A stretch of DNA of 64,000 nucleotides from positions 38,502,001 to 38,566,000 of the forward strand of contig CM114271.1 in assembly GCA_050084515.1 (NCBI GenBank), in the 5' to 3' direction. A program made the translations under genes and the position numbers. The DNA is from Blasia pusilla (lineage: Eukaryota). Below are positions 33,630 through 38,884 of the stretch, piece after piece. The notes under the pieces were generated by a model. The model was given only the letters and a program-made list of their open reading frames with translations. It had not been told where the DNA came from and searched no databases. The stretch's first letter is position 1, and every line of letters starts with the position of its first letter.

Positions 33630-35548
33630 GTAAGATTTATTAATAAAAAGGACTTGTGTACTTTTCATTTGTTCCTCATAAATGATATCGGCCTGAAACT
33701 TTTTTTTCTTCTCCATGGGAGTAGTCCCAACAACCTCACAAAATTTCATGGCTAATGTAAGTTCCACCCCAAGCCCCACAATAAAAATTTCTTTTAAGAC
33801 TTACATGACAATCTCGAGGTAGGAAAAATGGCTTGTGTACTTTTCATTTTTTCCCATATACATGATCTTTACCTGAGACTTGTTACACTTGTTCATAAGA
33901 GTGTTTAAAATCATTTTGAAAAAAAATTCAATTCAAATAGCTCTTCCATCCAAAGCCCAAAAAAAAGGTAAACCGAGACCCTCACGATAAGATTTACTAA
34001 GGAAAAATGACTTGTGCATTTTTTTATATTTTTCATCTAAATTTTATTGACCTCAACCTTTGTAGACATATTTCTTAGAGTGTTGAAAAACACCTTGCAA
34101 AGTTTCAAGTCGAATGGAACTTCCATCAAAAGCCCACAAATGGAGAAGTCATTCTAGACCCTTTTGTTACGATTGACCAAGGAAAAATAAATTCCGTACT
34201 TTTCATTTTTCTCATTGTAAATGATCTTGACCTAAAACTTTGTAGAAAAGTTTATAAGAGTGTTTTAGCCCAAATTTTAAAGTTTCAAGTCAAATGAAAT
34301 TTCCATACAAAGGTTAAAAATGAATAGGTCAATCTAGACCCTTACGATAAGATTTATAAAAGAAAATTGGCTTAAAAGTTTTTTCATCTTTTCCAAGTGT
34401 ATGATATGGACTTGAAACTTTTTAGAAACTTTTCTATAATTTTCTTAAACCACCTTGAAAATTTTAAAGTTATAAAGAACTTACATCCAAAGGCAAAAAA
34501 TGAAGAGTTCCAAACCCTTGCAACAAAGCTAAGGAAAAATGACTTTCATATGTTTCATCTTTTTAAGATATATGACCTAGGAATGAAACTTTATGGACAA
34601 GTTTATAAGTATGTTTAAAAAATCTTGTCAAATCATCGAAGAAAATGAAACTTCCACGGACAGGCAAGAAATAATTAGGTCATTCCAATCTTCCAACCCC
34701 TTGCGATAAGATTTATATAGGAAAAAAATGACTTGCAAGTTTCTCATCTTTTCCAGAGATATGATATGTACCTGAATCTTCATCAAAATGTTGAAAAGAG
34801 TGTCTTAGACCATCTTGCAAAGTTTCAAATCAAATGGAACTTCCATCCAAAGGTAAAAAATGAAGAGGTCATTCATACACTTGCGGTAAGGTTTAATACG
34901 GAAAAAGACTTGCATATTTTTCATCTTTTTCATGTACATGACGTGGATCTGAATTTTTTTAGAAAAGCTAATAAGAGTGTTTTCAAGCACCTTGCAAAGT
35001 TTCAAGTCAAATGGAGCTTCCATCGAAAGGTAAGAAATGAAAAGGTCATTCCTAACCCTTGTGACAAAATTTACTGAGAAAAAACGACTCAAAAGTTTAT
35101 CATCGTTTCCACTGATATGATCTTGACCCAATTTTTTTTTTTAAATAGAGTTTTTTAAAGCACCTTGCAAATTTTCAAGTCAAATGGAACTTCCATACAA
35201 AGGAAAGAAAATTAAAAAGGTCACAACAAGGTTTATTGAGAAAAAGGACTTGGATGTATTTCATTTTTTTCAAGTATATCGTTTTGACTAAAAACTTTGT
35301 GGGAAATTCAATTTGAGTGTTTCAAAGCACTTGGTAAATTTTCAAGTCAAATGAAACTAATGACGAGGTCATTCCATACCCTTGCGATAAGATTTACAAA
35401 GGAAGAATGACTTGCATATTTTGCTTCTTTTCCATGAATATGGTGTGGACCTCCAAATTTATAGAAAAATGTATAGTATTGTTTAAAAATACCTTGTAAA
35501 GACTAGAAATGAAAAGGCCTTTCCAATCCCTTGCGATAAGGTTTACAA
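33630..35548. repeat. Diverged ~180-bp tandem array, left block (about 11 units)
   Basis: The recurring motif ttcaagtcaaatggaacttccat...ggtcattc...gataagattta. A unit marker recurs at ~33654, 33832, 34012, 34193, 34372, 34544, 34733, 34910, 35088, 35250 and 35412. Confidence 0.9.
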
Positions 35549-35639
35549 GCTGCAGAGTTTCAGTTCTCAAGAGTCAACACCTACCATTGACAAATTGACC
35601 GTGTTGGGACGAAAACTCCTTTGAAATGAGCATGCCCCC

Positions 35640-36110
35640 TAGACGGTGCATGGGGTGGTTGAGGAGGTGGCGGTGGATCTCCTCATTGCGAATTTTCCTT
35701 TGGGTTTTGCTTGTGGGACAACAATCCGTCTGACACTGTCCCAGATTGGAATGTCCTGCTTTCGTACGACCAGATCGCGCTCTTGTTTTCTTTTGCCGAC
35801 GCGTATCTGAGTGACAAAGGTTGTTTCTTGGTCCTCACTGGAGCGAGCAGAGATGAGCTCTTCAACCTTCAGTGCATGAAGAGGTCGCTGAAGTGGAGGA
35901 CGGTGCAATCATGGGTAATTAAAAATGAGTATCCACTCCGATCGGCGACGAGTCAAGTCCGAGTAAGTCCTCTTATTCAACGAATTGAGTCTAACATAAA
36001 TTCAACCCGTCGGATCCCAACAACTTGTGTCTGCGGTGTTGCAATCCATCGACAAGATGAGTCAAGTGAACTAGAACATTTGTCCTGGTGGTTTTTTCCC
36101 TATGCCTGCC
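35640..36110 (+). pseudogene. N-terminal half of an N6-adenine/N4-cytosine (beta-class) methyltransferase-like protein
   Basis: VDLLIANFPLG resembles motif IV vDLiitDPPYg. After a frameshift it continues VPDWN...LFSFADAYLSDKGCFLVL (like rvLkpgG.i.i) and then W(V)IKN. Confidence 0.55.
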
Positions 36111-36199
36111 CAAGGATGATGGAGTGTATTCCACATCCTTATCTCCTCCCTCGGACAAACCAGACGCCTCCCGCTTTCGCTTCTCCCAAGTCTGTTGTC

Positions 36200-38884
36200 G
36201 GCTTGTGGAGTCTTTGTTACCTCATACTCCACATGAGTTTTCTTGGACAAGGATCTGGTCCGGCCCTCTTTCCCCGCTCGCCCGGACGATTCCGCCTCTT
36301 GCCTTGAAGACTCAACCTCTTTTCTGGAAGACTCGACCTCCAAATTCCTCGATCCCCTCGCCTTCCTCAAACCCGCTATGGATTTGTCTTTGGCGGTGAT
36401 GACCTTGCCCACCAACTCCGCTGTCTCGAGGGCTTGCTCCTCCGCATCTCCTTCGAAAAAATCATCAGGTTGCACGAAGTTCGGAATATCGTCCCTACCT
36501 GTAACCACTGCATCATACACCATGGGTAGATTTTTTTTTGTAATGTCCTCTGGGTCGTTGAAGTCCAACCAGATTGGACAATTGTTGACCTCCCAGTCGG
36601 ACATGCCCTGTCCCATCTCCATGTCGTACATGGAGAATGCCTCTCCATCAGGCGGAGAAGCCCACAATTTGCAAGGTGCCGGTAATTTTTTCCAGGATCT
36701 TGCATTCTTACAATTGATGAGGTACCTGTACACCATCCGCTGGGCAGCTCTTTGTCGAGATGACTCGGCCGCCTGGTCTTGAAGATCCCGCTTCTTCTTT
36801 GCAAAATCCCGTTTTTGGGCGTCTATTTCCTCATCGAGGTCTGCTTGAGGGAGGATGTGATTCTTGAACATCATCCTGAATCCTCGGTTTTTCGTGGGCT
36901 TATCTCTGATGTCATCAAGCCATAGTTCAAAATCTTCTGCAGCCTCTAGGTTTGGGGGGCTGGTATTCTGGCAGGAGAGAGGAAGAGAGGAGAGTCTGTC
37001 TTAAAAAAAAGGGCCAAATCCGCCTCCTCTCTTCAAAAAAATTTGACATATTTGAAATTTTTGTTTGCTTTCAAATTCATGAAATCTTTAGAAGAGAGTA
37101 GGTAGTGGTCCACATTCGGGCCTTAAGAAACCTCCTTTTTTCAGGGGGCGAGAAACAAGTAGACATCATAAGACCACTACAAACATTTTTCCATCACTCT
37201 CCATGTGAGCCTAAGTTTTTTCACATTGCCTGTCTCAATCTATAGTAAGCTGTGCCCAGGGCTATTTTTTTTTTAGGACCATTGGCAAATAATGTGACCA
37301 GAAGTAGCAATCTCATCTCAATGAAAGGTTCAAATAAAGACCAACTTTGTGAAATGTGAACACAGGAGACGATAATTAAACCAAAAGATTGTTAGCTGTC
37401 TGGAGTAAAGAGAAACTGATGTCCCTTCATTTAGATCCTAAATCTGATAAACCGAGATGCTGCACCCCTCCCAACCCGTTGGAATTTTACAGGTTCCAAC
37501 TCTTGCAACCCTTCGGAATCAGCCCCCTTCACTTTTGGTCTACCAGGGAAAGAGTCCGACCACTCAAGCAGCCAATCTGTCGCAATCCGACACCTTGCTT
37601 GGAAATGGTTGAAAAGTTGTAGTGGTCAAAAAGTGAAAAGTTGCAACCCGTCGGAATCACACGGGTTGCAAAATAAACATTCTGAGTAGCTAGATGAACA
37701 CAATCCACAAGTCCAAAAAAAATTTTCAACAAACACCATTATCGGTTGAAAAAATCTCATCTTTTATTACCTCCAAAGGAACCTCGGAAATGTACATTTG
37801 ATCTAGTCTATGATTTCTTCAGCCTCGTCATCTACAAATTTACTCCTAACTCTCATAGGTTCCTGTACAAAAGGAATGTCCTGGGATACAAGTGGCTCCT
37901 CTGGCCGATTGTAGACGGGGATCGAAAATGTTGGCGAATTCGAGAGCCTTGGCCCCCCCTAGGTACACCATAACGGTCCCATGTAACCTGATTTGAGTCC
38001 CACCGCCTTCCTCGGCAGTATATCTTGTACGCTCCATCGTGACATCCATCCAGTATCAATATGTGCTCCGTCCTTGGAAATACCAAGATGGCAATCCCAC
38101 AGGTAGTAGGAATCCAACACGTCTGAGAGAAGAGAAGAAGCCTACGACTTGTTTGAAGATACTAGGGAAAGGAGCCGAAGTGAAGAAGCCTGCCAGAATG
38201 CTTCTAAAGTTGGACTAATAGGGAAAGAGTCCGATCACTCACATAGCCAACTTGTCAGAATCCAACAAGTTGCCTGGAAGTGGTTAAAAAGGTGCAGTGG
38301 TCAAAAAGTGAAAAGTTGCAAGCTGTGGAAATCCGATGGGTTGCAAAATAGAAGTCCTCGGAATACATAGATGATCACATTCAAAAAGACATAAAAGATA
38401 TTCAGCAAACTTTTAGAAACACCATCATCGTTCGAAAAAATCTTGTCCTTTATTACATCCGAAAGAACCTCGGAACTGTACATTTCATCTATTCTATGAA
38501 TTCTTTTGCCCTCATCATCAAATAAATCCCTACTCCAAACGTTGCAGTCAATTTGGGTCCTTGAGTTCTTTGAACTCACTCGTCATTGTCCGAGAGCTCT
38601 TGCAAAATTACTGTCGGCCTTGCCCTCCCGATTTTCGGAATCGTGGGAAGTGACGATGGTGTCACTACCAATGGTGGGTCTGGAACCGGAGCTCTCGGCT
38701 TTGGAGGAGAGTTGTACGCCCCAACTAGCCTGTCGTAATCTACCTTTGCCTCCTTGCAAAGGTCAAACACTTGTTGCCTTCCCTCAAAGCAGAGAATGTT
38801 CCTGCCACTCTGCCAAGCGCCTCTGATACTCGCCCTTGAAAGGCCCACTAAGTCGAACACCAAGTCTTCAAAAGCATCTTGCAC
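36200..38884 (-). pseudogene. C-terminal half of the amino-methyltransferase-like protein followed by further unassigned coding segments
   Basis: EDLVFDLVGLSRASIRGAWQSGRNILCFE (~38872-38785) resembles beta-class motif I [14 protein letters not shown]..Aa...gR..igiE. Further coding-like pieces lie at ~38100-37850 and in the 267-aa ORF 36874-36071. Confidence 0.5.
37544..38520. repeat. Diverged ~290-bp direct repeat pair (37544-37835 and 38220-38520)
   Basis: Both copies contain agggaaagagtccga...agtggtcaaaaagtgaaaagttgcaa...gaacctcggaa. Confidence 0.8.

Follow-up and report, generated by a model that had tools for sequence, protein, structure and literature searches.

The 64,000-nucleotide stretch of Blasia pusilla DNA analysed here (the window; contig CM114271.1, positions 38,502,001 to 38,566,000) contains, within an array of a ~180-bp satellite, a 3.3-kb insert at 35548-38866. 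With a probability of about 70%, this insert is interpreted as a pseudogene fragment, rearranged and derived from a repeat family of high copy number, carrying a divergent and probably inactive gene resembling DNA methyltransferases (MTases). An earlier note had described it as one N6-adenine/N4-cytosine MTase-like gene, borne by a transposable element (TE) and split into halves on opposite strands by inversion of its distal ~2.7 kb. That the parts lie on two strands results from a local inversion of 499 bp in this decayed fragment; the gene itself is not built that way. The locus is a case of ordinary decay, and it is the family behind it that carries the interest.

The abundance of the family was evaluated by comparing one whole-genome shotgun (WGS) run (~1%), two skim assemblies and one RNA run with positions 35500-38930, at 85% likeness. 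Over this 3,431-base stretch, 17,964 of the 12,434,590 WGS reads (0.14%) were recovered: 39 are at least 99% alike, 1,432 between 95 and 99%, 7,842 between 90 and 95% and 8,651 below 90%, the reads below 95% being 16,493 in number. Thousands of contigs from the skim assemblies also match the insert. Since the matching reads amount to 0.14% of those sampled, and nearly all of them are less than 99% alike, the insert derives from an old high-copy family, with many diverged copies, mostly 85-95% alike, as expected of a TE. The TE-borne character proposed earlier is thus retained as far as a high-copy, TE-like repeat is concerned. A Pfam scan of six open reading frames (ORFs) at E<=10 found no transposase, reverse transcriptase (RT) or recombinase in the 3.3-kb insert. 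The rest of the window contains no other match to the gene family.

Two hypothetical proteins identify the gene: P0001, from the liverwort Riccia sorocarpa, and P0002, from the fern Adiantum nelumboides. They are the only matches at E<=0.001 (P0001, E 7e-6; P0002, E 5e-5) obtained by phmmer, among 1.84 billion representatives, with the longest ORF of the insert (309 amino acids, 36071-37000, minus strand), and tblastn places residues 195-325 of P0001 on window positions 36766-36392, minus strand. The left piece of the insert matches the C-terminus of P0001 (BLASTP E 7e-15, 35% identity over 88 residues), residues 400-486 corresponding by tblastn to 35711-35968 on the plus strand, and also residues 413-482 of P0002 (BLASTP E 0.002). 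Its motif IV exon was aligned by Smith-Waterman, in register, with residues 55-112 of E. coli YhdJ, a PF01555 enzyme, ranking 9th among 810 window ORFs. Judged by these alignments, the left piece is genuinely homologous to a protein family of land plants. Fern relatives P0003-P0005 were also found, and further fern paralogues were recovered, several of them truncated or chimeric.

The motif IV-like peptide that had been read on the plus strand at the left edge of the insert is present, though split over two frames: VDLLIANFPLGF lies in the frame of ORF 35643-35810, and LWDNN...AYLSDKG... in that of ORF 35663-36307. This copy must therefore contain a frameshift, between 35708 and 35711. The exon at 35711-35962 is directly followed by a GTAAGT donor at 35963-35968, and P0001 ends 2-4 residues past the position matching this donor, which suggests a conserved intron, into which the Riccia gene model read through; the earlier proposal that the gene contains introns is in line with this. 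The parts of the array and of the insert are listed below.

33630..35547, strand not applicable: left part of the satellite, stopping at about position 79 of the unit (from repeat families D1-D4 and unit phasing)
35548..36046, plus strand: segment A, 499 bp, made up of a decayed linker, the exon for motifs IV-VIII and the first 84 intron bases; inverted relative to other family copies
35676..35708, plus strand: motif IV strand DLLIANFPLGF, with NFPL at 35691-35702 in place of DPPY; register with the DPPY of YhdJ obtained through the family alignment
35711..35962, plus strand: rest of the MTase-like N-half exon (LWDNNPSDTVPDWN...DKGCFLVL...WRTVQSW...RSATSQVR), from BLASTP to P0001/P0002
36047..36968, minus strand: segment B, exon of the middle domain (ORF 36071-37000); a pyrimidine-rich acceptor is located near 36968, and 36070-36068 is a stop
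36995..37337, strand not applicable: segment C, a different, more abundant repeat module, with a depth of 700-870 versus ~320-360 in the adjoining bins
37338..38575, minus strand: flank downstream of the right-edge ORF, non-coding in appearance, with an internal duplication, a palindrome and a broken ORF-like stretch
38576..38866, minus strand: segment D ORF, candidate motif X/I-III exon (DLVFDLVGLSRASIRGAWQSGRNILCFEGRQQ...), cut by the satellite junction, with a donor-like GTGAGT site at its end
38867..39450, strand not applicable: right part of the satellite, restarting at about position 161 of the unit (unit phasing)

In other copies of the family, segment A lies the opposite way round. A joint between 35548 and 36047, on opposite strands, was found in 50 WGS reads with 44 different starts, at least 80 letters being required on the shorter side, and in 3 contigs. 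These copies consist of the reverse complement of 35548 onwards, followed by 36047 onwards, so that the motif IV exon follows immediately after the middle-domain exon on the minus strand; the same order, middle domain and then motif IV half, is found in the intact P0001. Because of this joint, the 499-bp segment is taken to differ in orientation from the rest of the family, with a breakpoint at 36046/36047.

The inversion originally suggested, of about 36150-38884, after which re-joining to 35548-36150 would bring motif IV and motif I, in this order, back into one gene, is improbable in the light of these joints. It would account for the position of the pieces at either edge of one insert, in opposite orientations, and for a motif IV exon ending in a donor site, and the two halves do occur together in one gene elsewhere, in P0002, with the motif IV-like half preceding the motif I-like one. 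However, family copies join 35548 to 36047, and not 36046 to 38866; 854 genomic and 23 RNA reads extend beyond 38866 with a common, coding continuation of 30 letters, which is unlike 36017-36046; the pieces in the window are permuted, and the ~90 residues which separate them in P0002 (~495-580) are missing from the insert; and the order actually restored is middle domain, then motif IV. Less probable still is an assembly artefact, by which the 499-bp segment would have been mis-oriented in a truly collinear locus. Raw reads do show a joint contradicting the arrangement of the window, and the locus is barely sampled (39 of 17,964 reads at least 99% alike), but the joint reads, from 44 starts in a family of hundreds or more copies, bear no sign of having originated at this locus. 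In addition, the segment is bounded on one side by the satellite junction, which would have to be created by a simple flip as well, and a collinear locus would still be a truncated, frameshifted fragment.

Returning to the interpretation of the insert as a fragment of an MTase-like gene family, the proteins share a helical middle domain of about 250 residues, behind which lies a highly divergent MTase fold of the beta class (PF01555-like); the fern proteins add a weakly ParB-like N-terminal domain. For the ESM-Atlas model of residues 385-625 of P0002, PF01555 clusters occupy 10 of 10 structural rows, with TM-scores of 0.64-0.69 over ~200 aligned residues; several of the neighbour clusters are from phages, also with ParB_N. 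A reference set was built from E. coli YhdJ (PF01555, 218 bits) and 152 relative loci, of which 141 gave clean translations and 34 were left after a 75% identity filter. By hhalign, the family alignment matches these 34 YhdJ relatives with E 2e-4 over 192 columns, residues 399-609 of P0002 corresponding to YhdJ 34-250. In this alignment DFPT falls on DPPY, SDLW on NVW, and LQRSPMFLL...LEMGCST...SFDIDE on TQKPEALL...LDPFAGS...GIEINSE. The top PDB rows of a Foldseek search with our own AlphaFold2 (AF2) model of P0002 (9-row alignment) were M1.HpyAVI (E 1.5e-3), CcrM, TTHA0409 and METTL3/14, none of them at E<=0.001. The C-terminal domain of the family is accordingly modelled and aligned as having the layout and fold of a beta-class N4/N6 DNA-MTase. 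The placement of the left half in a beta-class amino-MTase-like family, advanced in the earlier note, is supported by the P0001 match, by the structural neighbours and by the profile-profile alignment to the YhdJ relatives.

The catalytic and cofactor motifs are poorly preserved. Motif IV reads NFPL in the window, DLPT in P0001 and DFPT or DFPI in Adiantum, none of which corresponds to (D/N/S)PP(Y/F/W), so that the earlier remark on non-canonical key motifs extends to the replacement of DPPY across the family. At motif I the window has DLVGLS...CFE, in a weak alignment (P 0.016), the ferns have EMGC(S/G/E)T...SFD, and the corresponding YhdJ segment closes with ...GIE. The fold is retained, as are one glycine and the acidic residue that follows strand 2 (CFE in the window, SFD in the ferns); FxGxG is degraded. 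Because the aromatic residue and one proline of motif IV are gone in every member seen, and because of the degraded FxGxG, the family protein would be unable to methylate DNA by the canonical mechanism. It is most likely a DNA- or S-adenosylmethionine (SAM)-binding pseudoenzyme of a repeat element.

As a separate observation on the fern proteins, the N-terminal ~170 residues of P0003-P0005 contain a VWEGNHHLIAW-type motif. The fern N-terminus shows a language-model likeness of 0.95 to fungal DUF3723 clusters; DUF3723 appears in the accessible part of the literature on Starship elements, and this is to be taken as a lead only.

At the right edge, the motif I-like peptide reported on the minus strand, DLVFDLVGLSRASIRGAWQSGRNILCFE, is indeed present, in ORF 38576-38893; its identity as motif I is suggestive only. 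The ORF was aligned by hhalign to the 34 YhdJ relatives with P 0.016 over 39 columns, in register with motif I-II (YhdJ 216-254), and ranked 5th among 232 window ORFs of 70-160 amino acids. Both HMMER and hhalign put it in exact register on motif I-II. The 30-letter continuation found in the reads past 38866 translates, in frame, to TLIELCSRPG, and YhdJ, compared by hand, has RIILASSNPG right before DIVLDPF. On the strength of these alignments, the right-edge ORF probably represents the motif X/I exon of this gene family.

Several results weigh against the interpretation given here, as regards the family, its fold and its right piece. No Pfam family, including the PF01555 suggested earlier, was found at E<=10 in the six insert ORFs or in P0001-P0005, YhdJ reaching 218 bits as a control, and the fern/family profile has no match at E<=10 among PDB sequences. 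While relatives hit the MTase fold, the other part of the structural check gave a poor result: our AF2 model of P0002 has a mean predicted local distance difference test (pLDDT) of 43 and lends weak support only. VIA-align matched its residues 394-508, with Z of 6-9, to generic class-I MTases; since these matches concern many kinds of class-I MTase, they indicate an MTase half-fold and do not identify the family. The ParB_N-like matches of the fern N-terminus have TM-scores of 0.43-0.49, below the threshold of the tool. The right-edge ORF shows no similarity to the C-terminus and motif I segment of the ferns by BLASTP, hhalign or Smith-Waterman (ranks 349-417 among 810 window ORFs). Neither piece of the window is recognisable alone by a local hidden Markov model (HMM) of YhdJ relatives, which gave -2.0 bits to the right-edge ORF (rank 486 of 932) and -0.7 bits to the motif IV ORF (rank 154 of 932). 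The right-edge module has 2-4 times the abundance of the modules with the middle domain and motif IV. Finally, neither the insert nor the read data showed a transposase, a terminal repeat or a full-length copy.

One alternative, here considered doubtful, is that the right-edge motif I is a chance look-alike, located in an unrelated and more abundant module such as a long terminal repeat (LTR), membership of the family being confined to the left and middle pieces. The lack of significant likeness to the fern C-terminus, the absence of signal from Pfam, PDB sequences (none at E<=10) and the local HMM, the 4 control ORFs out of 232 which outscore this ORF in hhalign, and a depth 2-4 times that of the gene modules, with an RNA coverage of its own, would all be expected in that case. 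On the other hand, the 39 columns are in exact register with motif I-II, the family letters upstream add, by hand comparison, a PG-D match to the NPG-D of YhdJ, and it would be a coincidence for one insert of 3.3 kb to hold two independent MTase look-alikes. The HMM test must be regarded as powerless at this divergence, because the motif IV ORF, whose homology is established, fails it as well; the best result with the YhdJ-type HMM, among 1,253 window ORFs and 10 proteins, is 5.5 bits for residues 387-482 of P0001. Wider searches gave no relatives: none was found in a metagenome scan with a four-sequence family alignment, in an IMG/VR scan with the family alignment, in a search for longer proteins homologous to the right-edge ORF, or in a metagenome scan for collinear copies with the same ORF.

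If the right-edge ORF does belong to the gene, as is held probable here, the un-inverted insert is a circular permutation of it, with the motif I piece still upstream. Read along the minus strand, the un-inverted insert begins with the motif I exon and a flank of ~1.2 kb, continues with module 36995-37337, and ends with the middle-domain exon, the motif IV exon and the start of the intron. Read depth per bin is ~1,270 for the motif I exon, compared with 700-870 for 36995-37224, 320-585 for the exon of the middle domain and 250-475 for that of motif IV; since it is so unequal, the modules are not always linked. Provided that the right-edge ORF belongs, a permuted piece made of 3' exon, flank and 5' exons could come from the junction of adjacent or tandem copies, from a circular or LTR-like unit, or from patchwork repair.

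Inside the insert, the copy shows several signs of decay. Segment B contains a 66-nt extra repeat, in frame, at 36305-36370 (called by Tandem Repeats Finder at 36295-36340), which is skipped in 59 reads, and the stop at 36070-36068 is accompanied by further stops near the junction. Many family copies diverge to the left of 37337, where 261 reads have a loose end; within 36995-37337, a joint going back by 330 in 24 reads indicates that segment C is tandemly repeated in other copies. The RNA reads on segment C are oriented opposite to those on segment D and 37800-38930. The flank contains an internal duplication of ~300 bp, 37535-37832 resembling 38210-38519 with 77% identity, which many copies lack, as seen from deletion-variant joints. 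Two indels, at 37952 (+C in 481 of 1044 reads) and at 38034 (+TG in 600 of 939 reads), disrupt the ORF-like stretch 38161-37803 when it is compared with about half of the reads or most copies. This stretch was also considered as a ParB-like N-terminal exon of a next gene copy, and discarded: against the fern and Riccia N-termini, Smith-Waterman gave ranks from 14 to 805 among 1,253, with inconsistent alignments. A 31-bp near-palindrome (ttgcaacccgtg...cgggttgcaa) is located at 37641-37671 within the duplicated flank; 58 reads show an opposite-strand joint at 37637/37642, and the near-palindrome may be a hairpin-forming subterminal motif.

Transcription of the family was observed at a low level, 261 of 10,132,408 RNA reads falling on the stretch; only 1 is at least 99% alike, so that the signal comes from family copies. 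Most of the reads cover 37800-38144 and 38490-38930, their first mate being on the plus strand; for a stranded library of the usual type, this would correspond to RNA from the minus strand. The joint 38080->38567, seen in RNA, was tried as an intron and rejected: it is assigned to a deletion-variant copy, because the same joint is present in 44 DNA reads.

This low-level RNA and the fold retained in the relatives are what might speak for a live, spliced gene encoding an active N6-adenine/N4-cytosine MTase. That reading is barely credible, in view of the frameshift in the motif IV exon, the stop at 36070, the exons on opposite strands, the truncation at both ends and the non-canonical NFPL and DLVGLS motifs. 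With its frameshift, stops, 66-nt and ~300-bp duplications and gene-internal ends, this copy is inert and without function.

The ~180-bp satellite spans ~33630-39450 and is broken by this insert, as judged from repeat families D1-D4 and unit phasing, the insert being richer in GC than the satellite around it. Read homology sets its limits at 35548-38866: the left edge given in the earlier note is maintained, while the right one, formerly at 38884, is moved inwards, its final 18 bases resembling the satellite unit. Both ends lie inside the gene, the family sequence extending beyond 38866 and 35548 being joined to 36047 elsewhere, and defined TE termini were not found at the insert. Unit phasing across the junctions revealed no target-site duplication, and instead a loss of ~81 nt of satellite unit. 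Because of these two features, the insert probably arrived by something other than cut-and-paste insertion: a fragment may have been captured into the satellite during break repair or illegitimate recombination, rather than a complete element having transposed.

Around the array, two further repeat arrangements were noted. A second tandem repeat, with a period of 182 bp, 1.9 copies and 93% matches, is located at 40465-40821. Long inverted repeat pairs at 27405-30776 and 50172-53979, with arms of up to 289 nt that are 77-100% complementary, enclose ~20-26 kb, including the satellite array; they could be two opposite-facing copies of one element, or a large inverted duplication.

A wider reading can be put forward tentatively, and is possible rather than probable. 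The land-plant family found in the liverwort, the ferns and this genome would derive from a phage or plasmid ParB-MTase fusion, and would now be a dead DNA- or SAM-binding protein; in the present genome it would be the core or cargo of a mobile element amounting to ~0.1% of the DNA, the exon permutation reflecting a circular, tandem or LTR replication unit. If intact copies exist, DNA targeting, cofactor sensing and interference with host methylation are possible gains for such an element.

Other features of the window are set apart from the insert. An uninterrupted ORF of 1,538 amino acids at 13088-17704, minus strand, contains all NUP160 domains (six Pfam families, residues 61-1505); being full-length and free of introns, it suggests a retrogene or an unusually intron-poor gene. 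At 4769-5326, plus strand, an RT_RNaseH / RT_RNaseH_2 fragment (E 1e-32) is what is left of an LTR retrotransposon. Direct repeats at 44229-45504 and 53978-55284, ~9.7 kb apart and 87-97% identical, resemble the two LTRs of a single retrotransposon. A perfect (CT)94 microsatellite occupies 60842-61030.

Among known systems, the closest in layout are the PF01555 enzymes, such as YhdJ, M1.HpyAVI and CcrM, together with the phage ParB_N-MTase fusions, which share with the fern relative the fold and the order of motifs IV-VIII, variable region, X and I-III. Unlike them, the family is missed by the Pfam model, has NFPL, DLPT or DFPT in place of DPPY and a degraded FxGxG, and its gene is eukaryotic, bears introns, is present in high copy and encodes the added helical middle domain of ~250 residues. 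The family is not filed as a PF01555 member because it lacks the catalytic tetrad and the cofactor loop and is not matched by the curated model. The fold is thus divergent enough to escape Pfam, and its carriers are annotated as hypothetical proteins in bryophyte and fern gene sets. A limited literature search found no published description of the family, which does not show that it is unpublished.

METTL14 and DNMT3L are catalytically dead partners with an MTase fold, encoded by single-copy host genes and having known partners. The family resembles them in combining an MTase fold with degraded catalytic and cofactor motifs, and METTL3/14 chains are among the Foldseek rows; it differs in being a high-copy repeat.

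Two cases of prokaryote-type amino-MTases in eukaryotes are also relevant. Marchantia DN4MT1a/b, as described in the accessible part of the source, are N4-cytosine MTases of sperm, which cluster with prokaryotic N4-methylcytosine enzymes, keep TSPPY and are active (10.1101/2021.02.12.428880). As far as this description goes, they share with the family their occurrence as land-plant genes of prokaryotic beta-class ancestry; compared by the described motif, DN4MT1 consists of two tandem host genes with TSPPY, whereas the family is a repeat, with NFPL at this place in the window. Adenine-MTase (DAM) domains, in turn, are described in the accessible part of another source as sitting in the polyproteins of DIRS and LTR retrotransposons, with the catalytic pocket preserved (10.64898/2026.05.21.726589). 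By that description they are similarly prokaryote-type amino-MTases on a eukaryotic repeat, and the family is set apart from them by having no adjoining RT or recombinase, by its retained introns and by the loss of the pocket motifs. A repeat-borne pseudoenzyme would be a third kind of prokaryote-derived eukaryotic amino-MTase, beside DN4MT1 and the retrotransposon DAM domains.

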